64,000 nucleotides of DNA, taken from Candidatus Daviesbacteria bacterium. GTDB lineage: Bacteria > Patescibacteriota > Microgenomatia > Daviesbacterales > UBA10151. Positions 4,038 to 63,122 of this stretch are shown piece by piece (the stretch's first letter is position 1; every line of letters begins with the position of its first letter). The stretch spans positions 34,021 to 98,020 of the forward strand of contig JAKFWZ010000080.1 in NCBI GenBank assembly GCA_021731695.1, read 5' to 3'. The notes beneath the pieces are model-generated. The model was given only the letters and a program-made list of their open reading frames with translations. It was not told where the DNA came from and did not search any database. The position numbers and the translations under genes are program-made.

Positions 4038-4117
4038 CGTCATTGCGATATCATGAAATGAAGAAGCAATCTCAGTACACTCTGGGATTGCCGCGTCGCA
4101 AGCTCCTCGCAATGACG
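4038..4117. repeat. CGTC/RPE-like palindromic element (intergenic)
   Basis: terminal inverted repeats cgtcattgcga...tcgcaatgacg, inner gcaatctcag/ctgggattgc. Confidence 0.9.
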
Positions 4118-4861: not shown

Positions 4862-5458
4862 TCAGTATTCCTTTCGTCCTTCTAGGGCTCTTCTGAGCGT
4901 TGTCTCATCAGCATACTCCAAATCTCCTCCTACAGGAAGCCCGCGGGCAATTCTTGTGACCTTAATTCCAAGAGGCTTTATCAGCCTTTCAATATACATC
5001 GCCGTCGCTTCCCCTTCCATTGTCGGATTTGTGGCTACGATTATTTCAATAACTTCTTCTGATTTTAAACGGGGTAAAAGTTGTTTAATATAGAGCTCTT
5101 CCGGACCGATATTATCTAAAGGAGAAATTACGCCATGCAAGACATGATAAAGTCCTTTAAAATTTGCCCGTTCCATAGCGAGGACATCTAAGGGATCTTC
5201 AACAATCGCAATTAAAGTCCTGTCCCGACTGCCGTCTTGGTCAATTTCACAGGGATCAGTTTCTGAAATATTAAAACAAGTCTGACAAAGAACAGTTTTT
5301 TCCTTTAAAGCAATAGCAGCAGTTGCAAGCATTTCAGCTTCTTCTTTTGGTGCGTGAAGTAAATGATAAGTTAATCGTTGTGCAGATTTGGGACCAATGC
5401 CGGGGAGCCTTTCAAAAGCCTCAATTAAATCTCGAACAACTCGAGGTATAGTAGCCAT
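4862..5458 (-). CDS. recR: recombination protein RecR
   Basis: LPGIGPKSAQRL, YHVLHG, ATNPTMEGEATA, GGDLEYAD. Confidence 0.98.
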   Translation of the reverse strand: MATIPRVVRDLIEAFERLPGIGPKSAQRLTYHLLHAPKEEAEMLATAAIALKEKTVLCQTCFNISETDPCEIDQDGSRDRTLIAIVEDPLDVLAMERANFKGLYHVLHGVISPLDNIGPEELYIKQLLPRLKSEEVIEIIVATNPTMEGEATAMYIERLIKPLGIKVTRIARGLPVGGDLEYADETTLRRALEGRKEY

Positions 5459-5509
5459 AACAAAATGTATTATGTATCAGGTATTATGTATTATGCAATC
5501 ATGCTACCA

Positions 5510-5938
5510 CGATTAAAGATTAATGATTTATGATTAAAGAATGAAGAACGGCAAGATCGAAACTTTTACAGATTTGAATGTCTGGAGAGAGGGGCATAAA
5601 TTAGTAATCATGATTTATGCAATTACAAAAGGATTTCCCAGAGAAGAAGTTTATTCGTTAGTAGATCAGATGCGTAGAGCAGCAGCTTCAATTACTGCAA
5701 ATATAGCAGAGGGTTTCGGGAGACAAGGCTATAAAGAAAAAGTTCAGTTTTATTATCTGTCAAAAGGATCTTTAGCGGAATTAAAAAATTTCATTCTAAT
5801 CTCAAAGGATGTAGGGTATCTATCAGAAAAAGATTTTAATTTACTTGTAAGTCAAGCAAATTTGGTAGATCAAATCCTTTCGGGCTTTATCAGAAAAAGC
5901 AAAACATTCATTAATCGTTAATCTATAATCATTAATCG
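5510..5938. mobile_element. candidate element: four-helix-bundle gene within 34-bp inverted heptamer arms
   Basis: arms 5510-5543 and 5905-5938 built of NGATTAA units; sits antisense between ybaB and recR. Confidence 0.6.
5541..5921 (+). CDS. four helix bundle protein (23S rRNA IVP / Avd-like family)
   Basis: F.DL.VW, FP.EE.Y.L.DQMRRAA.SI.ANIAEG.GR, GSL.E signature. Confidence 0.93.
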   Translation: MKNGKIETFTDLNVWREGHKLVIMIYAITKGFPREEVYSLVDQMRRAAASITANIAEGFGRQGYKEKVQFYYLSKGSLAELKNFILISKDVGYLSEKDFNLLVSQANLVDQILSGFIRKSKTFINR

Positions 5939-5942
5939 ACGA

Positions 5943-6221
5943 TTACATTCCCGGCAAACCCATACCGCCCATTAACCCGCGCATTTCTTCAGCTGCAATT
6001 TTTTGAGATTGTTTCAATGCCTCATTAACTGCTTCAGTAACTTTTGAAGGCTCCATATCGCCATCGATTGAAACAACTTTTTGATCTGCTGTTAAAACAA
6101 CTGTCACACCTTTATGCTCAACTGTGATTTTTATTGCAGATAGTTTTTTCTGAACTTCCATGGCCTGATCTCTCATCTTTTTGAGATCGCCCATTTGTTT
6201 CATTGAATCCATGAATCCCAT
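5943..6221 (-). CDS. ybaB: YbaB/EbfC family nucleoid-associated protein
   Basis: size, sequence pattern and position next to recR. Confidence 0.85.
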   Translation of the reverse strand: MGFMDSMKQMGDLKKMRDQAMEVQKKLSAIKITVEHKGVTVVLTADQKVVSIDGDMEPSKVTEAVNEALKQSQKIAAEEMRGLMGGMGLPGM

Positions 6222-6280
6222 ATGAAAAGTATTATAAACAAATCATCCGCAAAAAGCGAGCCTGTTTCTGTTTTAAAACT

Positions 6281-6452
6281 GCGAGCTTAGAAACAAAGAC
6301 CGTAAAGATTTTGCGAAGGAGCTATCAGGGGAAAAGCGGACTCTGACGATTAGTCAGATGTCCGAAGGGGCAACCTCCCCGATTAGCGACTGAGAAAAAT
6401 TAGGCCGACTTTCCAGCGAGCAGAGTTTTGGTACTTTTGCGGTCAAAAGTAC
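6281..6452 (+). repeat. structured ~170-230 bp repeat, copy A
   Basis: homologous to 9988, 10201, 27355, 42476; ends gtacttttg-cggt-caaaagtac. Confidence 0.85.
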
Positions 6453-6493
6453 AAAGAAAGAATTTTGCCATCAAAAGTGGCTAAAAAATATAA

Positions 6494-6521
6494 CTGGATC
6501 CCAGATCAAGTCTGGGATGAC
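6494..6521. repeat. CGTC-family half element overlapping the purN stop
   Basis: ctggatcccagatcaagtctgggatgac. Confidence 0.8.
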
Positions 6522-7186
6522 AAAGTTATTGCCTCTGCTTTCACTTCATCCAATATCCCAAACTCTTCTTCTCTGATAACTCTCTCCGTTCTTTGAATCG
6601 GCACAAGCTCCCCAGATCTCTCAACCCCAGCCCAAAACTCTGCATTCACATTCCGCTCTATTTCTTTTGCTCTTTCTTGCAAACTTTCTGGTGTGTCATC
6701 TTTTAAAATATCAAATGGTTTGTATATGACTAAATCTCCTTTGTCAAACTCTGGCGAAACTAAATGAATACATATTTCACTATTGAATTCACGGTTTACT
6801 CTTTTAGAAAAATTGAGCACTGCAACATGAACCGCTAGACCTTTCATCCCTTTGCCCCCAAAGTCTGGATGACCGGGATCCAGAGGAGCAGAATGACTAT
6901 TCGTCATTTTGCCTTGATATTTATTCACAACATTTAAAGGAGTCAACAATTCCCAGCCATTATGAGAAATAAAGTCAACCTTATATTTATTAAAGATTGT
7001 AAGTAGCTCCTCACCAAATGCTTCAGATTCCTTACCCTGCCGCAGAACAATTTCGACCGGTACTCCTGCATTTTTTGCTCTTTGAATTATTCCTGCCTGA
7101 GGATTATTCGTTACAACAACCGCCGCATATTTAAACAGAACTTCTGCAGTTGTTCCCTGACCTGATGCTAAAATTGCTAATTTCAT
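6506..7186 (-). CDS. purN: phosphoribosylglycinamide formyltransferase family protein
   Basis: KLAILASGQGT, NSHSA, FGGKGM.G..VH, HLV...D.G. Confidence 0.8.
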   Translation of the reverse strand: MKLAILASGQGTTAEVLFKYAAVVVTNNPQAGIIQRAKNAGVPVEIVLRQGKESEAFGEELLTIFNKYKVDFISHNGWELLTPLNVVNKYQGKMTNSHSAPLDPGHPDFGGKGMKGLAVHVAVLNFSKRVNREFNSEICIHLVSPEFDKGDLVIYKPFDILKDDTPESLQERAKEIERNVNAEFWAGVERSGELVPIQRTERVIREEEFGILDEVKAEAITLSSQT

Positions 7187-7300: not shown

Positions 7301-8224
7301 TTAACCATTTTTTGACGCCTCCAGTATATTTTCCATCAAAGAATAAATAGTCATTGGTCCGACTCCGCCGAATTTAGGGGTATACATTTTAGCTTTTTCA
7401 TAAGTACTGGGGTCAAAATCCCCTAGGCCTACATCTATTAATATTGCACCCTCTTTTATCATTTCGGAATTAACCAGACTCTGAACTCCGGTGCAGGAAA
7501 TAACCACATCTGCTTCCTGCAAATCATCAAAATTGCAGTCAGGATTTCTTTTATCGAGGCGCAGGATTTTATGGGCATTTTTCATACTTAATTGCTCAAC
7601 TAAAGGTTTTCCCACTTCGCCTTCTGAACCGACAACCCCAAAAACTGTTTCTTTATACCAATTTTCGTCATCGCGAAGCGAGATCGCGGAGGCGTCATCG
7701 CGAAGCGAGATCGCGGAGGCGTCATCGCGAGGTGCTTTCTCCGAAGCAATCTCAGAGCTTACGGGGATTGCTTCTTCACTTCGTGATATCGCAATGACTT
7801 CTTCCAGAATCTTCATAACACCCAAAACAGTCGCTGAGACAAATGGGCTGTCTTCTTTCATTCCGTCAATATCTTTTTTCGAATCAATTAAATTAATCAA
7901 ATCCCATTTTGTTTTATCTTTCAAAAAGTCTCTGCTCAGAGGAAGTTGAATCATTATCCCCTTAACCTCGTCGGTTTCGTTTAAACTCCGAATCTTTTTA
8001 GCAACATTTTCAAAGGAAGTATTAACAGAAAATTTCATAGGCAAAAAGTCGATGTAAAATTCATCGGCTTTTTTCTGCTTCATTTGGGTATATAAAAGAG
8101 AATTGGGATCACTGCCGATTAAAATGCTCACTACAAGAGGCCGTTCCTTTAAGGCACCTAATTTAGTTTTTAATTTGTCACCCAGCCTATCAGCTAAAGC
8201 TTTTCCGTCAATAATTTGAGACAT
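7301..8224 (-). CDS. folD: methylenetetrahydrofolate dehydrogenase/cyclohydrolase with in-frame repeat insert
   Basis: IIDGK, GIMIQLPL, KDIDG, VGKP, TPKFGGVGPMT. Confidence 0.93.
   Translation of the reverse strand: MSQIIDGKALADRLGDKLKTKLGALKERPLVVSILIGSDPNSLLYTQMKQKKADEFYIDFLPMKFSVNTSFENVAKKIRSLNETDEVKGIMIQLPLSRDFLKDKTKWDLINLIDSKKDIDGMKEDSPFVSATVLGVMKILEEVIAISRSEEAIPVSSEIASEKAPRDDASAISLRDDASAISLRDDENWYKETVFGVVGSEGEVGKPLVEQLSMKNAHKILRLDKRNPDCNFDDLQEADVVISCTGVQSLVNSEMIKEGAILIDVGLGDFDPSTYEKAKMYTPKFGGVGPMTIYSLMENILEASKNG
7666..7798. repeat. CGTC/RPE-like element with two tandem 27-bp units, in frame in folD
   Basis: cgtcatcgcgaagcgagatcgcggagg x2 then core element; encodes VIAISRSEEAIPVSSEIASEKAPRD(DASAISLRD)x2. 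Confidence 0.92.
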
Positions 8225-10466: not shown

Positions 10467-12122
10467 TTAACTATTAAAAATTTCTGAAGCTATTTTTATA
10501 ATTTCATCATCAGCTGCAACTTCCACATTCGCCACTTCCTCAATCCCAACCAATCTTTTGCCCAACCTTGTTGAAACTTTCACAGGCTTTCCTAAGACTT
10601 CAGCTAAAATTGACTCAAGTAAATTTCTTGATTTAGGCGCCTCCAGAATCCTTTGATGAAATGAATAGGGAACTTCGAGAATAACATTCGAACCATCACA
10701 ATTTACAACTTTTGTTTGTTTTAAAAGAGCCTCAAGCGAATAATTATAAGGCTTAATTGTTTCCAATATATAGGTCCATTTATCACTGATTACAATTACA
10801 TCGTCAGTCGACTGCATATCATCAACTGAAGGAATTGGCTCGGATTTGGACGATGGAGGATTGATGATAGAAAATGGGTTTTTGGGAATAGAAGGCTGAG
10901 AATAGACTTCTTTTTCTATTCTTCCAACTTCTACCTTCAAAACACTATCTTCCATCCTACTATATTCGACCTTCGGTTGTTCCTTTGATATGCTTTTCAC
11001 AACCGCAACTTCCAGAGGTAAAACTGCAAGAGTTGTGTACTTAAGTTGTTCTAAAACAGCCTGGAAATTTTCAATGTATGAAACAATTTGTCCGATCTCA
11101 GATTTATCCGCAAAACCCTTAACTTCTTCCCACTTTGCAGTTCCAAGTTCAGATTTAATTGGTTCAACAACTCCATTTTTAGTAAGCATCACAGACCTTA
11201 AAGTCTTCAAAACCAGGTTCGTGAATTCCTTTATATTCGCACCCTTTTCGCTCAAGCTATTAATCAATACTAAGCATTCAGTAGATTTTTTTTGCTGAAT
11301 TAAATTAAGTAAGTTCATAATCTCAGAAAAATCATTTGCTTTAAGCAATGCGCGAACTTCTTCCGGAGTTTTAACGCCTGATGAAGCTATCTGATCAAGA
11401 TTTTTAACAGCATCCCTGAAACTGCCTTCACTTCTTTCGGATATTAAGCTTAAGATTTCATCATTCAATTCCAATTTTTCTTTTTCTGCAATATCTTTAA
11501 GCACTGATTTAATTTGATCACCGGAAGCTAAATTGAAATCAAATCTTTGCACACGGGATAAAATTGTCTGAGGGATTTTTCGATCCTCAGTTGTGGCTAA
11601 AATAAACAAAACGTGTGCAGGCGGTTCTTCTAAAGTTTTCAGAAGCGCATTGAATGCTTCAGGAGTAAGCATATGAACTTCATCGATAATATAAACTTTC
11701 ATCCTCGCTGAGCTCGGAGAAAGTTTGATCTTTTCGCGCAAGTCACGGATATCATCAATTCCCCGGTTTGAAGCGGCATCAATTTCGATCAAGTCCATGT
11801 TAGAACCGTCGGTTATTGAGATGCAGGCTGAGCATTTATTGCAGGGAATCTTTAAGTCGCTAGAATCTAGAGTCGAGAGTCTAGGGGTTTCCTTTTTTTC
11901 ACTAGATTCTAGACTCTGGCGACTAGACTCCTGCGCTTCACAATTTACAAGCTTTGCCAGAATCCGGGCTGTTGAAGTTTTTCCTGATCCTCTTGGGCCG
12001 ACAAATAAGTATGCATGTCCTAATTTTCCCAGGCTAAATGCATTTAAAAGAGTTTTTTTAACATGATCCTGCCCGATAAGTTGTTCAAAATTTTGAGGTC
12101 GGTACTTGCGATAAAAAACCAT
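10467..12122 (-). CDS. dnaX: DNA polymerase III subunit gamma/tau with two in-frame repeat inserts
   Basis: YRKYRPQ, GPRGSGKTS, EIDAASNRG, IIDEVHML; start moved to ATG at 12122 because the extension is repeat sequence. Confidence 0.97.
   Translation of the reverse strand: MVFYRKYRPQNFEQLIGQDHVKKTLLNAFSLGKLGHAYLFVGPRGSGKTSTARILAKLVNCEAQESSRQSLESSEKKETPRLSTLDSSDLKIPCNKCSACISITDGSNMDLIEIDAASNRGIDDIRDLREKIKLSPSSARMKVYIIDEVHMLTPEAFNALLKTLEEPPAHVLFILATTEDRKIPQTILSRVQRFDFNLASGDQIKSVLKDIAEKEKLELNDEILSLISERSEGSFRDAVKNLDQIASSGVKTPEEVRALLKANDFSEIMNLLNLIQQKKSTECLVLINSLSEKGANIKEFTNLVLKTLRSVMLTKNGVVEPIKSELGTAKWEEVKGFADKSEIGQIVSYIENFQAVLEQLKYTTLAVLPLEVAVVKSISKEQPKVEYSRMEDSVLKVEVGRIEKEVYSQPSIPKNPFSIINPPSSKSEPIPSVDDMQSTDDVIVISDKWTYILETIKPYNYSLEALLKQTKVVNCDGSNVILEVPYSFHQRILEAPKSRNLLESILAEVLGKPVKVSTRLGKRLVGIEEVANVEVAADDEIIKIASEIFNS
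10849..10974. repeat. GATAGAA/TTCTATC-type inverted array, in frame in dnaX
   Basis: homologous to the topA insert at 31508-31634. Confidence 0.75.
11855..11930. repeat. AGAGTCT/AGACTCT inverted heptamer array in the dnaX zinc module
   Basis: agtcgctagaatctagagtc...ctagattctagactctggcgact. Confidence 0.8.
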
Positions 12123-13517: not shown

Positions 13518-13523
13518 TTGGTT

Positions 13524-13606
13524 GGGTTATGAGTAATGAGTTCGGAGTTATGAGAATTAAACTCATAACAAATAACTCAAGCAGCTTTGCTGCGTACTCA
13601 TAACTT
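13524..13606. repeat. GTTATGA/TCATAAC inverted heptamer array in the rpsU 5' region
   Basis: gggttatgagta...tactcataactt. Confidence 0.8.
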
Positions 13607-20257: not shown

Positions 20258-20435
20258 TCCAAGAAATAAGCAGAGCTTGCGATTCTACGAATCTAAAGCA
20301 TAGCTTGCGAGCTTGCGCTCTTAAGATACAAGTATTCCAAACAATAATCAATATTAAAACTTTCAAATCTAAAATATTTGATTATTGAAAATTGTTATTT
20401 GGAGCTTGTTTGTTTCTTGCGTCTTGGACACTTGG
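20258..20435. repeat. CAAGAAA/TTTCTTG inverted heptamer array with nested AAGCANAGCTTGCG units
   Basis: similar to 54894-54993. Confidence 0.7.
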
Positions 20436-20891
20436 TTATTGACCTAAGGCTATTCTTGAGAATTTGCCGATTTTAATATTTTCACCAAGCTTGGCAATTG
20501 CTGATTTAATTAAATCACCAACTTTTTGAGAAGGATCACGGACATAATCCTGGTCCATTAATTCATCAGCATCTTTAGGATTCATGGAAGCGATTTGCAA
20601 AGCGAGTTCGTGTGCTAAAGTTTTAAAATCTTCAGTTTTTGCAACAAAATCTGTTTCGCATAAAACTTCAACCAAAACTCCAACTCTTCCGCTGTGAGAA
20701 TAGGTTTCAACAACACCAGCACCAGTTTCTCTGTCTGATTTTTCGCCTGCTTTATCTAAACCTTTTTTATGGAGAATTTCTTTTGCTTTTTCGATATCAC
20801 CTTTGGATTCTTCAAGTGCATTTCTGCAGGCTGCAATTCCTGCGCCTGTTTGATTTCTAAGCTCTTTAACTAAATCAACTGATATTGTCAT
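20436..20891 (-). CDS. tsf: elongation factor Ts (short form)
   Basis: VKELR..TGAG, CETDFVA, GENIKI. Confidence 0.96.
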   Translation of the reverse strand: MTISVDLVKELRNQTGAGIAACRNALEESKGDIEKAKEILHKKGLDKAGEKSDRETGAGVVETYSHSGRVGVLVEVLCETDFVAKTEDFKTLAHELALQIASMNPKDADELMDQDYVRDPSQKVGDLIKSAIAKLGENIKIGKFSRIALGQ

Positions 20892-20998
20892 AATTTGAAA
20901 TTCGAAATTTTAAATTTGAATTCAATATCAAATATTTTAAAATTTAAATTTTAAAATTAGTATTTGATTTAAAATTTCAAACTGAAAATTTAAAATTA
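20892..20998. repeat. AT-rich AAATTTN inverted heptamer array
   Basis: aatttgaaattcgaaattttaaatttg...aaatttcaaactgaaaatttaaaatt. Confidence 0.7.
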
Positions 20999-21000
20999 TT

Positions 21001-21865: not shown

Positions 21866-21954
21866 GTTATTGGTTAGTTGGTTATTGGTTCATAGTACCC
21901 CAAACAAAAATATGTTTTAGTTGGCGATGAACCAACTAACTATGAACAAATCAC
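21866..21954. repeat. GGTTANT/ANTAACC inverted heptamer array in the rpsB leader
   Basis: gttattggttagttggttattggttcatag...gatgaaccaactaactatgaac. Confidence 0.75.
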
Positions 21955-22140
21955 AAAAAAGGAAAAAACCTAATGATTCCTTAACCTCTTCAGTACTAGT
22001 GAATTCAGGAATCTAAAGTACTGAATGTGTGATTTGGGTAGTTTATATTAATCTGAGCCTAAAAGTCAACCACAATCATGCGAACTGATTGTGGTCAACG
22101 ATCTTTATTAATTTAATAATTTTGTTATTATGGGATCTTA

Positions 22141-29713: not shown

Positions 29714-31921
29714 TTATGCGTTGGCAATAGCCGGATCTTTAGGTTTGGTCCACGAAGCATATTTGCAATTAGGATAATTTTTACATCCGAAAAATGTCTT
29801 GCCTCTTTTAGTTTTTCTTACTACAACGTCCCCTCCGTCATCCGGACATTTTACATCAAGTATTTGTTCAATTCGCTCGGTGTGTTTGCAATCGGGGAAT
29901 CCTGAACAGGCAAGGAATTTACCAAATTTTCCAGTTCTAACAATTAATTGCTTTCCGCATTTTGGACAATTTTTATCAACAGTTTCAACTTCAAGCACTA
30001 CCCTTTCTGCAGTTTCTTCAATAGTTCCGAGCTTTGCTGAAAGAGGCTTAAAATAAGTTGCTACAGTTTCTTTCCATTCCTTTTCTCCTCTTGAAATATC
30101 ATCCAATGAATCCTCCATTTGAGCCGTAAATTGATAATCAAATAGTTCAGGAAAATGCTTCATTAAGAAATCATTAACGGTCATTCCGAGAGAAGTCGGA
30201 TTAAATTTACGCTCAGTTTTTTCAACATAATACCGATCCTGAATTGTTGAAAGAATCGGAGCATAAGTCGATGGGCGACCAATTCCCAGTTCTTCAAGTT
30301 TTTTAACAAGTGAGGCTTCGGTAAATCTGGGAGGAGGTTGAGTGAAATGCTGAAGTGGCTTAATTTCTTTTTGTTCTAAAGCTTCACCTTCTGTTAAATT
30401 AGGAATCTTTTGATCTTCAGCTTTATTTTTTTCTTCGCCTTCAACCTTTTCCTCTTCCTCTTCTTCTTTATCAATTCCGTAAACTTTAAGCCATCCGGGA
30501 AATTTTAATTGTGAACCAGTTGCTCTTAAATTGTATTCGTCATCGCGAAGCGAGATCGCGGAGGCGTCATTGCGAGCCGCAGGCGAAGCAATCTCAGAGC
30601 TTACTGGGATTGCTTCTCCACTTCGTGGTATCGCAATGACGTCAACTGAAGTTTGATCAAATACCGCATCATTAACTTGCGAAGCAACTGTTCTCTTGAA
30701 TATGAGGTCATAAAGTCTTTTGTGATCACGGGTAAAATTATCTCCTTTTAGCTTTTCAGAATTTAAATTCACATCTGTAGGCCTGATTGCTTCGTGAGCT
30801 TCCTGTGCATTTTTTGATTTAGCTTTGTAGAAGCGCGCTTGAGCTGGCAAATATTCTGCCCCTAAATTTGCAGAAATATAATCTCGTGCCATTCCCAAAG
30901 CTAAAGTTGAAAGATTGACGGAATCAGTTCTCATGTAGGTTATATATCCCTGCTCATAAAGGTTTTGAGCAATCATCATAGTTTTTTTCGCAGACATACC
31001 TAGTTTATTGCCTGAAGTTTGCTGCAAGGTTGAAGTGGTAAATGGCGGAGCAGGAGACCGTTTAACTTCTTTTTTAGTAATGGCTCTAACTGAATAAGCA
31101 CTTTGCTTAAGGTTTCCAACGATTTTTTCAGCCTCATCACTATTGTTTATAACTGCCTTTTCCCTGTTGATTTCCGTAAGTTGGGCTGTAAAAACCTTCG
31201 ACTCTTTCGACCCCTCCGACTCCTTCGAATCTAGCAATACTTCTATACTCCAATATTCGTTAGCTTTAAACGCTTCGATCTCGCGCTCACGCTCTACGAT
31301 TAAACGCAAAGCCACAGATTGTACACGACCCGCAGACAGACCTCTTTTTATTTTTTTCCATAATACCGGAGAAAGTTTATAACCGACTAAACGATCCAAA
31401 ACTCTGCGTGCTTGTTGAGCATCGACCAGCTGCAGATTAATTTCGCGCGGATGCTCAAAAGCTTCCATAATTGCGTTCTTTGTAATTTCATGGAATTCAA
31501 CACGCCGAATGGACGGTAGATGACCGATGATAGAAGATGGTTTTTTGAGAGTAGAAGATTGAGAATTGATTTTCTTATCTACTTTCAATCCTCCATTTTC
31601 CGCCCCTACCTTCAATTTTCTATTTTCCATCGTCATAATCTGAGCTAAATGCCAGGCAATTGCTTCTCCTTCACGATCAGGGTCGGTGGCCAGATATAAA
31701 ACATCTGCACCCTCCATCATCTTTTTTAATTCATTAACTTTCTTCTTTTTATCTCGCGGGATTATATATTTAGGCTCAAATGTTTCCTCGTCAACTCCGA
31801 TTTCAGCTTTTGGCAGATCACGGATATGACCCATCGAAGCTTCGATTTTATAATTCTTACCTAAAAATTTTGAAAGTGTTCTCGCTTTTGTAGGCGATTC
31901 GACGATTACAACGTTTTGCAT
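29714..31921 (-). CDS. topA: DNA topoisomerase I with three repeat-derived segments
   Basis: VESPTKA, DPDREGEAI, SAGRVQS, ITYMRTDS, C-terminal zinc ribbons. Confidence 0.98.
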   Translation of the reverse strand: MQNVVIVESPTKARTLSKFLGKNYKIEASMGHIRDLPKAEIGVDEETFEPKYIIPRDKKKKVNELKKMMEGADVLYLATDPDREGEAIAWHLAQIMTMENRKLKVGAENGGLKVDKKINSQSSTLKKPSSIIGHLPSIRRVEFHEITKNAIMEAFEHPREINLQLVDAQQARRVLDRLVGYKLSPVLWKKIKRGLSAGRVQSVALRLIVEREREIEAFKANEYWSIEVLLDSKESEGSKESKVFTAQLTEINREKAVINNSDEAEKIVGNLKQSAYSVRAITKKEVKRSPAPPFTTSTLQQTSGNKLGMSAKKTMMIAQNLYEQGYITYMRTDSVNLSTLALGMARDYISANLGAEYLPAQARFYKAKSKNAQEAHEAIRPTDVNLNSEKLKGDNFTRDHKRLYDLIFKRTVASQVNDAVFDQTSVDVIAIPRSGEAIPVSSEIASPAARNDASAISLRDDEYNLRATGSQLKFPGWLKVYGIDKEEEEEEKVEGEEKNKAEDQKIPNLTEGEALEQKEIKPLQHFTQPPPRFTEASLVKKLEELGIGRPSTYAPILSTIQDRYYVEKTERKFNPTSLGMTVNDFLMKHFPELFDYQFTAQMEDSLDDISRGEKEWKETVATYFKPLSAKLGTIEETAERVVLEVETVDKNCPKCGKQLIVRTGKFGKFLACSGFPDCKHTERIEQILDVKCPDDGGDVVVRKTKRGKTFFGCKNYPNCKYASWTKPKDPAIANA
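30538..30641. repeat. CGTC/RPE-like element plus 27-bp unit, in frame in topA
   Basis: encodes [34 protein letters not shown]. Confidence 0.92.
31508..31634. repeat. GATAGAA/TTCTATC-type inverted array, in frame in topA
   Basis: homologous to dnaX 10849-10974. Confidence 0.78.
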
Positions 31922-31982: not shown

Positions 31983-32074
31983 GATTGTTAAATTGCTCAA
32001 TTGTTAGATTGTTGAATTGTTAAAAAACAATTGAACAATGAGTGAGCGTAGCGAACGATAACAATGAAACAATT
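31983..32074. repeat. ATTGTT/AACAAT inverted array
   Basis: gattgttaaattgctcaattgttagattgttgaattgtt...aacaattgaacaatg..aacaatgaaacaat. Confidence 0.75.
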
Positions 32075-34617
32075 TAATCTAAGTAGCTTTCGTCAATAGA
32101 AATCGGCTCGCCTTTGGGCATACTTCCTTCAAGAATTTTTTTAGATAATTTAGCCTCAAGCGTATCCTGCATAACTCTCTTTAAAGGACGCGCGCCAAGC
32201 ATCGGATCATATCCTTTTTCAGCTAATTTTGAAACTAAGCCTTCATTAAACTCAATCAAATAGCCTTCTTTTTTCATCACCTGTTTTAACCATTCCAATT
32301 TCAAACGAACTATTTTTTCCAAATCTTCCTCACTTAAAGGCTTAAAGGCGACAACTGCATCAAAACGATTAACAAGTTCCGGCCTATACACCCTTAATAA
32401 TTCTTCACGAATATCTTTATCAAGATCCTCGATACTCTTACCGGATTTCAAACCATCAGCAATCAAAAGCGAACCCGCATTTGAAGTTGCAATGATAATT
32501 GTTTGTGTGAAATCAGTTGTTACACCGTCTGCATCTGTTAAGCGACCATCATCAAGAACCTGAAGGAATAAATTCAGAATCTTAGGCTCCGCCTTTTCAA
32601 ATTCATCAAGAAGCAGCAAACAATATGGTCTGTTACGCACAGATTCCGTTAACTCACCAGGGTTTTCACTTGTTCCGATCAACCGGTCAATTGAGCTTAA
32701 AGTCTGATATTCAGACATATCAAACCTAATAAATGCGTCTGCATTACTAAAATATACTTCAGCTAAAGTTTTCGCCAGTTCTGTTTTACCTACACCTGTT
32801 GGCCCGACAAAAAGAAATGATCCAATCGGACGGTTTTTATCACGTATCTGAGCTGAAGCCCGTCTTAAAGTATCTGAAACTTTTTTAACAGCTTCTTCCT
32901 GATCAATCATTCTTTCGTGAATTTTTCCTTCAAGATTGAGAAGCGTTTGTTTCTGCTCACCCTCGAATTCCCCCACAGGCATTTTGATATCCCTCGAAAG
33001 AACTTCTTTTATAATCGCGGAATTCACAGCCGGATTTGCTCCGCGGGATACAGCCTCAGTCAAACACTCTTCATAAACCATCAGCGCACTATCAGGCAAA
33101 ACCCTCGTATGTATAAGTTCAGAGCATTTTTCAACAAGAAATTTTATTGCGAGGTAAGTAGTTGAAATATGATTAAAACGTGCCTCATCGATCGCGTGAT
33201 TAATCAAAATCTTTACAGTATCATTGATTTTGGCCGGACCTAATTCAATTTTATGGAAAATTCGCGCAAAGCTACTATTTTTTTCGATAATTTTTGCATA
33301 ATTTCTGGGTTCAGTTGTGGCGATAAACTGGAAACGGTCTGATTCTAAATAAGGCAAAAGTAGGGAATATAAATTAAAACTTTTTCCGGCATCGCCAATT
33401 CCTAATTCGTGAATTTCATCAATGAAAATAATAATATCTTCAACAAATTCAACTTCTTCAAAGGCTTTCTTAATTTTTTCAGCTAACTCCCCCTCCGTCC
33501 TAACGGCGGACAAAAGACGCGCAGCCTCGAGCTTCACCACCCTTTTTGTAGCCAGCGAATCAGGCGCATCACCTCTTAAAATCATTTTCGCCAGATAACT
33601 TACTAATGTAGATTTACCGGCCCCGGGCTCACCAACAAGCATTACATTCCTATCACGAGCCTGCGATAAAACAGTAATCACTTCCGTCACAATATCCTGC
33701 CTACCTGCAAATTCCGCTGTTCTTGATCTGCTTATTTCTCTTGTAACATCAACCGAAATCGCATCAAGATCAGGTGTTGGCGCGCCTAACCAACCTCTGT
33801 TTATTCCGCTTAAGTGTCTGATCCCGAAATCTTCATCCCAAATATAAATGCGTCTCCAGCGGTTTCTGTTTGTTTCTAAATAAAGAAGTGCTCCTTCGAA
33901 ATCTTCTTTTTTAAGATTTATTTTCATCAGCTCATTATCAATCCCGCTTAGATCCTCCAGCATTGCTACCCAAAAGTAAGCTTCAGTTAAAAATCTGGCT
34001 TCTGAATTTTTTGCCAGTTCAAATGCCCTTACAGCTATTTCATTAGTTAGTAAAACATCCTGATTCGAGAAATTTTTGGTCTCAAGTTCTAAACTCGCTA
34101 AGTACATTTTTAATTCTTCGCTTTCCAAAAGATCTTTCCACCGCACATCATTTTTATTCAAAGGCGTAGCTTTCCAAATTTCTTCAGCTGAATTCACTTT
34201 CCAGACAGGTTTAATGTTTTTATGCAACTCACGATTTAGAAAAATCGCCAGCCCTAAAAGTATTATTGTGATGTTACTAATCAGGAAAAAGTCAAAATAA
34301 GGCAAAACTAAAACATTAAAAATAAGTAAAAATATCGTTATTGGTGCGCTAAACCAAATCAAAGCCACAAAAAATATCAAAACAACCGCGCATAAAAATC
34401 CAAAAATTCCGATTAAAACTCTACTTAATCTAAAAAGGAAGCTTAAAACCCGTCCGACAATACTGGAATCATGAAATAGAGGAACAAACAATAGTTTGAA
34501 CATTAATCCGACAGCCAAATCTTCCTCTAAAATTAGCAGGATATTTTTTAATGAGCGCTCAAAAACAACAGCAGCTGTTGGATACCAGAATAATAGTAGA
34601 TGTAATGGAAGTAACAT
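32074..34617 (-). CDS. ClpA/B-family double AAA+ ATPase with N-terminal membrane segments
   Basis: GEPGAGKS and GPTGVGKTELAK, DMSEYQ, LLDEFEKA, RPELVNRFD. Confidence 0.9.
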   Translation of the reverse strand: MLLPLHLLLFWYPTAAVVFERSLKNILLILEEDLAVGLMFKLLFVPLFHDSSIVGRVLSFLFRLSRVLIGIFGFLCAVVLIFFVALIWFSAPITIFLLIFNVLVLPYFDFFLISNITIILLGLAIFLNRELHKNIKPVWKVNSAEEIWKATPLNKNDVRWKDLLESEELKMYLASLELETKNFSNQDVLLTNEIAVRAFELAKNSEARFLTEAYFWVAMLEDLSGIDNELMKINLKKEDFEGALLYLETNRNRWRRIYIWDEDFGIRHLSGINRGWLGAPTPDLDAISVDVTREISRSRTAEFAGRQDIVTEVITVLSQARDRNVMLVGEPGAGKSTLVSYLAKMILRGDAPDSLATKRVVKLEAARLLSAVRTEGELAEKIKKAFEEVEFVEDIIIFIDEIHELGIGDAGKSFNLYSLLLPYLESDRFQFIATTEPRNYAKIIEKNSSFARIFHKIELGPAKINDTVKILINHAIDEARFNHISTTYLAIKFLVEKCSELIHTRVLPDSALMVYEECLTEAVSRGANPAVNSAIIKEVLSRDIKMPVGEFEGEQKQTLLNLEGKIHERMIDQEEAVKKVSDTLRRASAQIRDKNRPIGSFLFVGPTGVGKTELAKTLAEVYFSNADAFIRFDMSEYQTLSSIDRLIGTSENPGELTESVRNRPYCLLLLDEFEKAEPKILNLFLQVLDDGRLTDADGVTTDFTQTIIIATSNAGSLLIADGLKSGKSIEDLDKDIREELLRVYRPELVNRFDAVVAFKPLSEEDLEKIVRLKLEWLKQVMKKEGYLIEFNEGLVSKLAEKGYDPMLGARPLKRVMQDTLEAKLSKKILEGSMPKGEPISIDESYLD

Positions 34618-42747: not shown

Positions 42748-43959
42748 ATGACTAACATTATTAAACTTCCTGGACTAATCGATACTCACGTCCATTTACG
42801 CGAACCCGGTCTTACGCATAAAGAAGACTTTGAGTCAGGCACAAAAGCTGCAATTGCAGGCGGATACACAGTTGTTTTAGATATGCCCAACAACCCAAAC
42901 CCAATTACCAATCCCGAAGCTTTAGCTGAGAAAATAAAATTAGCTGAGGGCGTCATTGCGATATCACGCAATGAAGAAGCAATCCCAGCAAGCTCTGAGA
43001 TTGCCGCGTCGCCACGTTCAGTTAACATGAATGTGGCTCCTCGCAATGACGATACAAATACCCTCGCCCTCAAGGGAGAGGGCCAGGGTGAGGGGTATTC
43101 CAGAATCTACTGTGACTTAGGTTTTCATTTCGGCGCCTCAGAAGAAGCAATTAAATATTTCGGGGATGTTCAGGAAAAAGTCTTTGGTTTAAAGGTTTAT
43201 ATGAACCACACAACCGGTGAACTATTGATAGAAGACAAAAAATTACTTAATGAGATATTTGAAGCCTGGCCCAAAGATAAAGTATTAATGGTTCATGCAG
43301 AAACAGAAACTTTAGCTATGGCTATAGAACTGGCGAAAAAACATGGCAACACTCTTCACGTTTGCCACGTTGCGAGGAAAATTGAACTGGAATTAATTAA
43401 GCAGGCAAAATCAGAAGGGCTTCCAATCACTTGCGAAGTTTCTCTTCATCATCTTTATTTAACCCACGAAGATGAGGAAAGACTCAGGCATTTCGGAATG
43501 ATGCGCCCACCCTTAGCCTCGCCTGAAGATGTGCAATATCTTTGGGATAATATTGATTCAATCGATACGATAGCTTCGGATCACGCACCTCACACAAAGG
43601 AAGAAAAGGAAAGCGAGAAAGTTGTAAATGGTGTGCCAGGATTAGAAACCAGTCTTCCTCTATTACTTAACGCGATTAATGATGAAAGATTAACGATTAA
43701 TGATTTAATCAGACTAACTTCTGAAAATCCCAGAAAGATATTTAATATCCCTAAACAGCAGGATACATATGTAGAGGTTGATCTCGACGCAGAATGGACA
43801 ATTTCTAATGACGGATTATTTACAAAAGCGGGCTGGACACCTTTCGCAGGAATGAAAATAAAAGGAAAAATCCTAAAAACAGTTTTAAGAGGAGAGACAG
43901 TTTTTGAGAATGGTGAAATTAAAAATGCTCCTTCAGGAAAAGTTATTTTCCCAAAATGA
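42748..43959 (+). CDS. pyrC: dihydroorotase with in-frame repeat insert
   Basis: DTHVHLREPG, DMPN, HAE, SDHAPH, GWTPF.G. Confidence 0.95.
   Translation: MTNIIKLPGLIDTHVHLREPGLTHKEDFESGTKAAIAGGYTVVLDMPNNPNPITNPEALAEKIKLAEGVIAISRNEEAIPASSEIAASPRSVNMNVAPRNDDTNTLALKGEGQGEGYSRIYCDLGFHFGASEEAIKYFGDVQEKVFGLKVYMNHTTGELLIEDKKLLNEIFEAWPKDKVLMVHAETETLAMAIELAKKHGNTLHVCHVARKIELELIKQAKSEGLPITCEVSLHHLYLTHEDEERLRHFGMMRPPLASPEDVQYLWDNIDSIDTIASDHAPHTKEEKESEKVVNGVPGLETSLPLLLNAINDERLTINDLIRLTSENPRKIFNIPKQQDTYVEVDLDAEWTISNDGLFTKAGWTPFAGMKIKGKILKTVLRGETVFENGEIKNAPSGKVIFPK
42951..43095. repeat. CGTC/RPE-like element followed by a CCCTC..GAGGG element, in frame in pyrC
   Basis: cgtcattgcg..cgcaatgacg (42951-43051) and ccctcgccctcaagggagagggccagggtgagggg (43061-43095). 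Confidence 0.9.
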
Positions 43960-51032: not shown

Positions 51033-53174
51033 ATGCTTCTTAAAATTTTGAAGGCGGGTTTTATTCTCCTTTTTTGCTTAACACCATTTGTATTCACAAA
51101 ATTTAACTCCGAGCTTTTTGAGTACAACAAAATGATGCTGGTCTACTTATTAACCGTTATTACGGCGGGAACCTGGATATTAAGAATGATTTCCGAAAAA
51201 AGATTGATCTGGAAGAGGACTATCCTGGACATTCCTTTAGCTTTATTCCTAATAAGCCAACTTATCTCAACTATTATCTCAATCGATATTCACACTTCAA
51301 TTTGGGGCTATTACTCGCGCTCAAACGGCGGACTTCTTTCGGTAATTTCTTTTATTGTTTTGTATTTTGCATTCGTTTCGAATTTTGAAAGCAAAGATGT
51401 TTTGAAGTTTTTAAAAGCTTCGGTTGTAGCCGGAGCATTTGTTGCTTTATATGCAATTCCGGAACACTTCGGTGCCTCCTTTTCCTGTTTAATTTTGGAA
51501 CAAGGACTAACTGTAAGCTGCTGGGTTCAGGATGTTCAGGCAAGAGTTTTCGGAACTCTCGGCCAGCCGAATTGGTTAGCTGCATATCTCTCCATGTTAA
51601 TCTTTCCGGCAATATACTTTTTCATAACAGCCAAAACTGTTTCTAAACGTATCTCGTATTTCGTATTGCTTATTGCGTATTACCTGGCCTTCACTTTCAC
51701 CTACTCAAGAGGCGCAACTTTAGGTTTAATCGCCGGAGCGGCAGTAATGGGACTTGGCGTTTTATATTCTGGAGTAAGATCAAACGATTATAAAAACTTT
51801 AAACTTTACACCATCGTTATCATTGTTCTTTTATTTTTGAGCATGGTTTACGGAACAGCGATCAGCGAATACAGACTATTAAACGATCCTTCAGTTCCTT
51901 TGCGTCCTACACTATCAGAATCAGGCTCAAGCGGAACACAACTGGAAAATGGCGGAACTGAATCAGGAAAAATCAGGCTAATTGTATGGAACGGCGCTTT
52001 AGATATTTTTAGAGCTTTTCCAATATTTGGCTCAGGCGTTGAAACCTTTGCTTATGCTTATTATCAATTCAGACCACCCGAGCATAACATGGTTTCAGAG
52101 TGGGACTTTTTATATAACAAGGCTCATAATGAGTATCTTAATTATTTAGCCACAACAGGAGCTTTTGGGTTTTTAAGTTATATTGCGGTTATTATTGTTT
52201 TTTTGTTATGGGTTATGCGTTATGTGCTGCTCATAAAACCCAAAGAACTCATAACTCATAACTCACTACTCAAGAGCGAAAGCTCGCAAGCTCTGCTTAT
52301 AACGTCCCTTGCTGCAGGTTATATCAGCTTCTTGGTTCAAAATTTCTTCCTTTTCTCCGTAGTTACAGGCTCCTTATTTTTCTATATGTTTCCCGCAATT
52401 CTTTTCGTTTACTTTGACGAAGTCAAAGAGCTTTCGCCTAAAAATATCCTGTCCAGGTCTTTAGAAAAGCTTTTCATATTAATCAGCCGTAATAAGATCT
52501 CTTTGTGGATTGTGCGAATCTTGATTGTTCTCATTATCTTAATTTTTCTGAATAACCTTTTATCACTTTGGGAAGCTGATAAAGCGTATAAAGACGGCTC
52601 TGCGTATAATGACTATGGAAATCCCGGAAGAGCTTACAATTTTTTAATTGAAGCAGTTGGTTTAAACCCAGGTGAACCTCTATATTTAGTAGAACTTGGA
52701 AACGCAGCCGGATCATCAGCAATTGCATTAGCAGAAGAAGATGCAACAACTTCAGCTGAACTTATTGGCGATTCGGAATTTTTTACAGATTTAGGAATAT
52801 CAATCAGTCCAGTTAATACTTCAGTCCTACGAACTGCAATAAGAACTTACTTTCAATTAAGTTTACTCGACCCAAAATATAAAGATAAAACGCTCGAAAT
52901 CGTTAACCAGACAATAGAACTTGCACCAACTGATCCAAAACTTTTAGTTAATAAGGCAGTTATATTAACGCAATTCGAGCAGATTCCTGAGGCAATTGAA
53001 GCGTATAAAAAAGCTGTTGAATTAAAACCCGATTATCGGGAAGCCAGATTGCAGTTGGGGGATTTGTATGTAAAAACAAATCAGAAGGATTTGGCAAAGC
53101 AACAGGCGGATTATGTTTTGGAAAAAATTCCCAATGATCCTGATGCTTTAAAACTTCAGGAAGCGGCAAAATAA
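51033..53174 (+). CDS. O-antigen ligase family membrane protein with TPR repeats
   Basis: GTLGQPNWLAAYL, T.SRG, R..W, AHNEYL; TPR C-terminus. Confidence 0.88.
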   Translation: MLLKILKAGFILLFCLTPFVFTKFNSELFEYNKMMLVYLLTVITAGTWILRMISEKRLIWKRTILDIPLALFLISQLISTIISIDIHTSIWGYYSRSNGGLLSVISFIVLYFAFVSNFESKDVLKFLKASVVAGAFVALYAIPEHFGASFSCLILEQGLTVSCWVQDVQARVFGTLGQPNWLAAYLSMLIFPAIYFFITAKTVSKRISYFVLLIAYYLAFTFTYSRGATLGLIAGAAVMGLGVLYSGVRSNDYKNFKLYTIVIIVLLFLSMVYGTAISEYRLLNDPSVPLRPTLSESGSSGTQLENGGTESGKIRLIVWNGALDIFRAFPIFGSGVETFAYAYYQFRPPEHNMVSEWDFLYNKAHNEYLNYLATTGAFGFLSYIAVIIVFLLWVMRYVLLIKPKELITHNSLLKSESSQALLITSLAAGYISFLVQNFFLFSVVTGSLFFYMFPAILFVYFDEVKELSPKNILSRSLEKLFILISRNKISLWIVRILIVLIILIFLNNLLSLWEADKAYKDGSAYNDYGNPGRAYNFLIEAVGLNPGEPLYLVELGNAAGSSAIALAEEDATTSAELIGDSEFFTDLGISISPVNTSVLRTAIRTYFQLSLLDPKYKDKTLEIVNQTIELAPTDPKLLVNKAVILTQFEQIPEAIEAYKKAVELKPDYREARLQLGDLYVKTNQKDLAKQQADYVLEKIPNDPDALKLQEAAK
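52205..52299. repeat. GTTATGN/ACTCATA inverted array plus GCAAGCTCTGCTT unit, in frame
   Basis: encodes LWVMRYV..ELITHNSLLKSESSQALL. Confidence 0.7.
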
Positions 53175-54893: not shown

Positions 54894-54993
54894 TCAAGAA
54901 ACAAGTTACAAGTGTCCAATTAATGACCAAATAATAATTTTCAATTTGAATATTTGAATTTGTGATTTGTTTGTTTCTTGTTTCTTGTTTCTT
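54894..54993. repeat. CAAGAAA/TTTCTTG inverted heptamer array
   Basis: tcaagaaacaagttacaag...ttgtttcttgtttcttgtttctt. Confidence 0.8.
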
Positions 54994-61046: not shown

Positions 61047-61715
61047 ATGTCTGTCCCTGAAATCATTCATCGTTTTTCGTTCATCGTTGGTCAGAAAAAA
61101 CAAAAAATATCTTCAGAAAATAACGAACAGCGAACTACGAACCGATCCGGTTTTACTTTAATAAACCGTGGGACTATTAAAGCTAGCCCTACAGGCTTCA
61201 CTTTAATTGAATTAATGATTGCAATTACTATTATTGCCGTCCTTTCAACTGTGGCATTCGTTTCCTATTCTAAAGCCCAGCAGCTTGGTCGGGATGCAAA
61301 AAGAAAACAGGATTTAAGAACCATAGCAATATCATTGGAACTCTATAAACAAAGAAACGGCAGATATCCATGCGCAGAACCATGGCAGGATAGTAATGAT
61401 ACTCAACCCTGGATAAGAGACTCATTACTATCGCCAAATACAATTTGTGATAACTTAAAGCCCGCTTTTGATACTAACTATATAAGCGCCCTACCTAAAG
61501 ATCCTAGGAGCACAGGTTCGAGTCCATCCGCTGGTGGAAATTTTGTTTACGGATATAGAGCTTTCGAGTGCGGAACGGACGGTTCGCATTATATTCTTAT
61601 AGCTGAACTTGAAAATACTAGTGATCCTGACAGAGCTATTTTAACTACACCATGGTGCGGAGGAACCTATGCCGATATCACTAGTGCCACTAATAAATTC
61701 ATCATTGCCAATTAA
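61047..61715 (+). CDS. type IV pilin / GspG-like prepilin
   Basis: GFTLIELMIAITIIAVL, RDAKRK.DL, LPKDP. Confidence 0.9.
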   Translation: MSVPEIIHRFSFIVGQKKQKISSENNEQRTTNRSGFTLINRGTIKASPTGFTLIELMIAITIIAVLSTVAFVSYSKAQQLGRDAKRKQDLRTIAISLELYKQRNGRYPCAEPWQDSNDTQPWIRDSLLSPNTICDNLKPAFDTNYISALPKDPRSTGSSPSAGGNFVYGYRAFECGTDGSHYILIAELENTSDPDRAILTTPWCGGTYADITSATNKFIIAN

Positions 61716-63040: not shown

Positions 63041-63122
63041 TATGCAAAACGTGATATGTAAAACGACTATATATTACGCAATTTTTTCCATATAACGTAT
63101 GCCGTATTACATATCACTTATA
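63033..63122. repeat. GTGATAT/ATATCAC inverted array
   Basis: acgtgatatgcaaaacgtgatatgtaaaacg...cgtattacatatcac. Confidence 0.7.

Follow-up and report, generated by a model that had tools for sequence, protein, structure and literature searches.

A four-helix-bundle gene between inverted arms of five heptamers in a Daviesbacteria genome, a candidate for a mobile cassette without a transposase

In a contig of a Candidatus Daviesbacteria bacterium, of which a stretch of 64,000 nucleotides (the window) was analyzed, a gene for a four-helix-bundle protein is enclosed by two inverted arrays of degenerate heptamers. The gene (positions 5541 to 5921, forward strand, 126 amino acids) has its start codon in the left array and its stop codon in the right array, and the unit may be the gene-bearing representative of a family of small cassettes, which turn up at operon junctions unrelated to one another. 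The explanation that we favor, and to which we give an even chance, is that of a selfish cassette, in which a predicted pentamer binds the five-unit arms and, as a non-catalytic adaptor, has host enzymes copy these arms into tolerant sites. Specifically, one pentamer would bind each five-unit arm on single-stranded nucleic acid, one heptamer per subunit, and the bound pentamer would help host repair or recombination enzymes to copy the arms, with or without the gene. The anatomy of the cassette, the empty and refilled alleles of its junction, the many sites of its homologues, a ceiling at five units and a coupling of the unit to the protein lineage are direct observations. Sequence-specific binding to the single-stranded arms is what we infer, and the adaptor role would be comparable to that of Avd, the accessory protein of DGRs.

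The two arms (5′ or left arm, 5510 to 5543, forward strand; 3′ or right arm, 5905 to 5938, reverse strand) are 34 nt long each and complementary at 28 of the 34 positions (82%), and each consists of four full heptamers and a fifth unit of 6 nt. The left arm, whose units have a GATT core, ends on the start codon and spans the ribosome-binding region of the gene, and the inverted right arm contains the stop codon. These positions, the 28/34 match and the inclusion of the start and stop codons had been given in the first-pass annotation and were confirmed by re-measurement and by shuffling (inverted-match score of 19, as compared to a maximum of 12.5 in 500 shuffles). The same is true of the antisense placement of the cassette between recR (4862 to 5458, reverse strand, profile match) and ybaB/ebfC (5943 to 6221, reverse strand, passing the Pfam and failing the NCBIfam cut-off), whose stop is 4 nt from the right arm. 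A third array had been overlooked, since an orphan outer arm with a differing, GTATTAT-type unit lies immediately outside of the left arm (5466 to 5499, forward strand).

For the comparison of this junction, 30 of 40 recR matches were taken, one of which is this genome, leaving 29 relatives. The search for empty alleles was successful, with a short empty junction in six of the 29 (L006, L011, L013, L015, L017 and L018), and L006 is from the same genus as the window genome. L004, also of this genus, carries another family member with GTATTA-type arms at the junction, L022 an internally deleted member (42 amino acids, the one such cassette encountered) with a third unit and both arms kept, and two further genomes, L071 and L076, have GATT-type cassettes. 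All five cassettes at ybaB-recR (window, L004, L022, L071, L076) are antisense to the operon. The orphan arm is identical at 33 of 34 positions to the 5′ arm of the L004 cassette (genome G004), yet recR differs at 40 of 66 four-fold sites (61%), and in L005 a similar array is retained without the GTATTA-type cassette gene. The site thus is layered: either an older cassette was replaced, or the arm was placed first and then reused.

The junction is a hotspot for other insertions as well, with a GIY-YIG gene with palindromic ends (L019), lone palindromes (L009, L021, L024) and several unrelated ORFs. In runs X1 and X3, a contig fuses 31 bases of the right arm (5908 to 5938) to a repeat that matches window position 4099, which indicates a close copy of the right arm elsewhere in that sample. 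Furthermore, a multi-copy structured element and a palindrome, on which many contigs pile up, are located upstream of ybaB (6250 to 6520).

Evidence for mobility comes from 26 labelled homologues, which occupy 13 sites and whose tree, weakly supported with 6 of 33 branches starred, needs 17 site changes. A single clade for the GATT cassettes at the recR site is not rejected (p-AU 0.11), and this counts against the main explanation. Relative to 24 close homologues, pN/pS is 0.17–0.31 (with synonymous sites saturated), and the family gene thus is under purifying selection while its site changes.

The window genome contains 16 family genes, and the expectation that the paralogues carry arms was borne out, in that an inverted flank score of at least 12 was found for 11 of the 15 testable genes as compared to 21 of 1218 control ORFs. 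In a larger set of 168 distinct loci, composed of twelve own genes, the best 80 of 381 loci from a protein search and the genes of relatives of the same class (and hence biased to close kin, with short-flank loci and partial matches excluded), 134 have inverted arms with a score of at least 12. Mismatched pairs reached this score in 28 of 300 cases, and a comparison in direct orientation in 11 of 168. The best period at these loci is 7 in 145, 8 in 11 and 9 in 8. From 34 matches in other phyla, 12 plasmid loci were inspected by eye, and both arms were inverted in nine and a 3′ arm alone was present in two. At the remaining locus (L233, in the cas6-cas4 interval of a Pseudanabaena plasmid), both flanking arrays are long and in direct orientation.

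The best-scoring control ORFs are other small genes, among them GIY-YIG-like genes with palindromic ends (named by eye) and a PF13366 GxxExxY nuclease with arms of approximately 9-base periodicity; two further small ORFs with inverted flanks look PaaX-like. The loci concerned are G000 C14:25158, C34:7786, C79:164, C31:12080, C10:17181 (L361), C5:6135 and C40:11258, and arms of their own seem to accompany several small-gene families. Within the four-helix-bundle family, 9-base units are found in one protein clade and in longer members with a C-terminal extension (G000 C28:9976, C4:47928, C15:5010, C25:2073; L033, L059, L146, L177, L189), and at C25:2073 9-base repeats are also present within the ORF. 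In one family the arms have two parts, with outer CAAG-type and inner AATT-type units and pairs of 100–150 nt (G000 C16:8049; pairs such as C4:57296, C6:6408 and C39:7279; window 20258 and 54894).

To our knowledge, no function has been established for the PF05635/TIGR02436 family in 30 years. The window protein belongs to it with 120.4 bits for PF05635 (23S_rRNA_IVP, cut-off 33.8) and 111.5 bits for TIGR02436 (four helix bundle protein, cut-off 24), and its closest named relatives are from Daviesbacteria, Levybacteria and Woesebacteria. Its predicted structure (pLDDT 94.6) has four helices and resembles Xcc0516 (2GSC, chain 2gsc_B; TM 0.89, sequence identity 35%), BT_0352 (2RLD; TM 0.74–0.77) and Avd (4DWL and 8UB7; TM 0.70–0.79). 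The entries of the homologues 2GSC and 2RLD contain five chains, and by analogy to 2GSC the window protein likely is a pentamer. The likeness to Avd, itself a pentameric nucleic-acid-binding barrel, is one of fold, whereas the protein stays below the cut-offs of the Avd profiles (22.3 vs 80 bits for NF033474, 23.3 vs 40 bits for PF22296) and, unlike in DGRs, no reverse transcriptase was found among its neighbours or in the 97%-complete genome G000 (no PF00078 match). In the DGR complex, all five Avd protomers hold flipped-out bases in crevices between subunits, and Avd lies approximately 40 Å from the active site and is non-catalytic (bioRxiv 10.1101/2023.10.23.563531).

One alternative, which we consider unlikely, is that the protein itself is the mobilizer, a new kind of transposase or nuclease that, as a ring, attaches to the arms and uses its invariant polar residues to cut or join DNA. 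Six polar residues (Q43, R46, S50, N54, E57 and E80) indeed are conserved to 96–100% in 168 family proteins, the gene is the sole cargo of the cassette and is selected through its site changes, and neither a partner enzyme beside the gene (none of the 50 flanking ORFs that were scanned encodes a transposase or nuclease) nor a reverse transcriptase in the genome was found. However, profile and fold comparisons of the window protein matched only four-helix-bundle families and folds and no transposase, HUH (Y1) or nuclease fold or motif, and the structural relative Avd is remote from catalysis. Furthermore, the cassettes lack a target-site duplication (mean flanking direct repeat of 2.89 nt at 71 loci vs 2.87 nt in controls, the outer ends being fuzzy) and a fixed outer end.

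The selfish cassette with a non-catalytic pentamer draws on the makeup of the arms. When up to two mismatches per unit are allowed, five units are present in 105 of 232 arms, four in 51 and six in 21, and the chance of stopping rises from 0.28 at four units to 0.78 at five. This ceiling matches the pentamer of the family. With three mismatches allowed, the peak spans five and six units (91 and 65 arms), which counts against the main explanation. Gene-less pairs show the same limit, with five units in 29 of 80 arms and more than five in only four. In the home clade, positions 1–4 of the unit are conserved at 0.81–1.0 (the first being fixed by phasing) and the last three at 0.62–0.85. The proposal of the first-pass annotation that each paralogue has its own heptamer holds insofar as the unit follows the protein lineage: the more similar two proteins are, the more similar are their units (Mantel r 0.43, 0 of 999 permutations), and pairs sharing at least six of seven unit bases make up 2–4% below 50% protein identity and 61% at 70–80%. 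It fails in that units are common within clades and some are 8- or 9-mers. Plain co-inheritance alone could have this effect, and the residue that covaries best (K/Q82, phi 0.88) is non-significant with at most six independent pairs. Five units, a conserved core and a lineage-coupled unit are the traits expected of binding sites for a five-fold ring, to which the arms would bind, and the ceiling and the lineage-specific units together predict a code of one subunit per heptamer.

Quite unlikely, in our estimate, is an intervening element at the RNA level, in which the arms fold the cassette out of the transcript as an RNase III hairpin and the protein is a passenger or chaperone. The window cassette does fold into one long stem (z −3.28), in which the terminal inverted repeats close around the S23p-family ORF, and among cassettes with callable flanks, mostly inside operons, 31 are sense and four antisense. 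The closest precedent are the ORF-bearing intervening sequences (IVS) in the 23S rRNA of Coxiella burnetii and Leptospira, which encode S23p (PMC4990558, citing Ralph and McClelland 1993). The Coxiella IVS shares with the window cassette the gene family, a length of approximately 430 nt, stem-forming terminal inverted repeats, a sporadic distribution and even tandem heptamers (GACAGAT) before the start codon; it is cut by RNase III, and mobility through the product of its ORF is one proposed theory (PMC4990558). In view of the same gene, inverted repeats and heptamers in Coxiella (PMC4990558), calling the element class undescribed, as was done in the first-pass annotation, is too strong. However, the window cassette lies antisense between two protein genes rather than in an rRNA gene, its genome has 16 family genes with differing units and hundreds of gene-less arrays, and its arms carry no sign of selection for RNA pairing. 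Between arms, 373 mismatches are transversions, many of which break pairs, as compared to 221 others, a G-U bias is non-significant (123 vs 98, p 0.11), and a G-U excess on the gene strand is absent even at sense loci (26 vs 39), such that motif recognition fits the pattern better than pairing. Pairing also requires neither a 7-base period nor five units nor a lineage-specific unit, single arrays exceed paired ones, and cleavage of an mRNA that is not joined again would break operons apart. In the interval from 5300 to 6600, no Rfam family is matched at gathering level.

The selfish cassette reading extends to arrays that have no gene. Twelve such sites in the window had been listed in the first-pass annotation, and all of them show two opposed arrays by eye, though 31508 and 31983 are weaker and a strict genome-wide detector calls four of the twelve. 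In a joint test of inverted and period-7 scores, which is lenient in that each site's own values serve as the threshold, ten sites were not reached by any of 362 null windows, while 0.6% of them reached the values of 31508 and 2.5% those of 31983. Two pairs lie in frame in DnaX, one in the linker with a weak score (site 10849, 10857 to 10958) and one in the zinc-finger loop (11855 to 11924), where relatives have other units or a short loop; a third (52205 to 52262) is in frame in another ORF and has other units in G010 and G017. Site 13524 (13519 to 13583) is intergenic, as is site 20258 (20340 to 20396), which is the inner part of a compound pair whose gap is 188 nt here and 5 nt in G004. Site 20892 (20890 to 20999) adjoins a start codon, and sites 54894 (54896 to 54993, compound, with another unit in G017) and 63033 (63051 to 63117) precede one. 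The others are 21866 (21878 to 21957), 31508 (31554 to 31627; seven relatives have 30–66 nt and no pair there), 31983 (32004 to 32077, weak by score) and 61062 (61063 to 61143), which rests on inspection because its best inverted match is an unrelated 8-mer. A gene-less GATT-family array with four mismatches to the right arm is located at 43673 to 43706 (forward strand).

Palindromic inserts, which we take to be of the kind of the Rickettsia palindromic elements, are found in frame in MgsA/RarA-like and FolD-like ORFs (686 to 2107 and 7301 to 8224, named from translations), and in G002, G011 and G013 the DnaX linker contains similar ones instead of heptamer pairs. A second DnaX-like gene, 37% identical and possibly a contamination, is on a short contig (G000 C101:32-1495).

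The genome as a whole contains 239 period-7 arrays, where a shuffled control yields 12. Short inverted pairs without a gene number 40, with none in the control, and seven of the pairs are within ORFs. The polarity is that of gene arms in 34 of the 40, and 18 match an arm of the window genome, as opposed to none in the opposite polarity. The order of units common to loci was better than permuted orders in 113 cases and worse in 59, with 26 ties, which argues that the arms are at least partly copied as blocks. The idea that the gene-less pairs are scars of deleted genes is not supported, because their spacers resemble family genes no more than random DNA does. The spacers measure 0–78 nt, and 17 of the 40 have A/T runs (against a background of 19%). 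Single and paired gene-less arrays likely are arms brought in trans to flank short A/T-rich stretches of host or filler DNA.

That the abundance of arrays is tied to the gene family was upheld in 17 genomes (16 relatives, sampled at 59–100 kb each, and the window genome), where array density follows gene number with a rho of 0.65 (0.00 for control periods), kin being non-independent. For the window genome, 28 flanking arrays were roughly subtracted where the true number is 15, which leaves its rank unchanged. Family genes number from 0 to 16 per genome, and genomes with none or one have 0–6 arrays per 100 kb. Arrays match the genes of their own genome better than random ones in the window genome (136 of 224), G027 (28 of 31) and G017 (7 of 10); the match is unconvincing in G038 (11 of 20) and G010 (2 of 5), which counts against the main explanation, and a first, under-sampled test across ten relatives ended at 75 vs 73. 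G026, a single-contig genome with five family genes, has a better match to these than to random genes for no more than 19 of its 50 arrays, its two broken family genes carry other units, and its commonest array unit has no owner gene, which means that arrays outlive their gene or arise without it.

The DnaX zinc-finger loop illustrates the consequences. It has 5–13 residues in 14 relatives and 19–48 in eight genomes, and seven of these eight long loops contain periodic arrays, whose units differ among genomes. Mobility of this kind would alter operon junctions, and loops of essential proteins such as DnaX, time and again. At 52205, the pair in G017 makes the site only 6 nt longer than alleles that lack an array, and this points to overwriting or a compensating loss.

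Turnover of this kind also bears on a distinctly improbable third alternative, a host regulatory network in which a TRAP-like RNA-binding pentamer regulates its own gene through the arms and the gene-less arrays near start codons are kept targets. It is compatible with the left arm over the ribosome-binding region, with the preservation of the orphan arm before the far more diverged recR, and with a regulatory role as proposed by MacGregor for the TAACTGA repeats of Beggiatoaceae (PMC4679880). However, units turn over at one site between close relatives, pairs sit in frame in protein loops, gene number varies from none to 16, and the assignable arrays that end at host start codons have 3′-arm polarity in 10 of 11 cases, opposite to the autoregulatory arm. 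The least probable alternative, to which we give very little credit, is that a host process generates the arrays by slippage or template switching, with the gene hitchhiking by recombination and the protein not acting on them: some arms have grown to long perfect arrays of at least ten units, one of which breaks an assembly (G000 C4:49750, C1, C3, C4, C51; L004), G026 is rich in arrays without a matching gene and co-inheritance could explain the coupling of unit and protein, but the sharp five-unit ceiling, degenerate units with a fixed core, near-exclusive arms at family genes and the scarcity of arrays where genes number none or one speak against it.

Simple repeats that arise by slippage show a smooth decay in copy number without pairing or gene association, unlike the arms described here with their ceiling, inverted pairing and family-specific flanking. 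In REPIN-RAYT and MITE systems, a gene with inverted-repeat flanks is accompanied by many gene-less paired repeats with variable spacers, and the repeat sequence tracks the gene lineage. The cassette resembles REPIN-RAYT in its gene-less pairs, which match gene-flanking repeats (not so in G026), and IS elements and MITEs in the terminal inverted repeats at most of the 168 loci. Unlike these, it has no HUH or DDE transposase and no target-site duplication, and its arms are tandem heptamers rather than palindromic REPs. Given that it also lacks the location of an IVS, the cassette works like a REPIN-RAYT system without being one.

Cyanobacterial STRRs are short heptamer repeats. We see a wider possibility, to which we give somewhat below even odds: the four-helix-bundle family would power mobile DNA of a transposase-free class, each pentamer recognizing its 7-base word in five copies and driving the placement of such arms around itself and bits of host DNA. 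Its footprints would be the ORF-bearing rRNA IVS and the heptamer repeats of cyanobacteria, Xanthomonas and Beggiatoa, and DGR Avd would be a domesticated member, which, if true, suggests an origin for this accessory protein. Two old questions, the role of the S23/IVP family and the origin of abundant bacterial 7-base repeats, are thereby joined, and if the protein also drives the spread, DNA would here be mobile by a route that involves no known transposase.

GGGAATC and TAACTGA, two heptamers published as orphan repeats, are also found beside family genes. A four-unit GGGAATC run lies over the start codon of XCC0516, which encodes the solved pentamer, and of its counterpart in X. axonopodis, though the XCC0516 run has no inverted partner in the supplementary table (PMC4692102). 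Heptamer runs mostly have approximately four units in Xanthomonas (PMC4692102) and two to six in Beggiatoa (PMC4679880), and they often are convergent pairs or lie just before start codons (PMC4692102, PMC4679880). Most TAACTGA runs are located directly before start codons, and no mechanism was found for them (PMC4679880). The searched parts of both papers draw no link between heptamer repeats and PF05635. The family has been reported inside cas loci (PMC3936711) and in CPR rRNA insertions (bioRxiv 10.1101/2024.02.27.582315), and a general description of the arm-gene-arm architecture was not found in the open-access literature and preprint main texts covered. A scan that used DNA only, for opposed TAACTGA arrays approximately 350 nt apart, yielded 34 loci, nine of which have a family gene inside, one of them only a fragment. 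The nine enclosed proteins fall into visibly different subclades, which counts against the main explanation and means that unit and lineage are not one-to-one across phyla.
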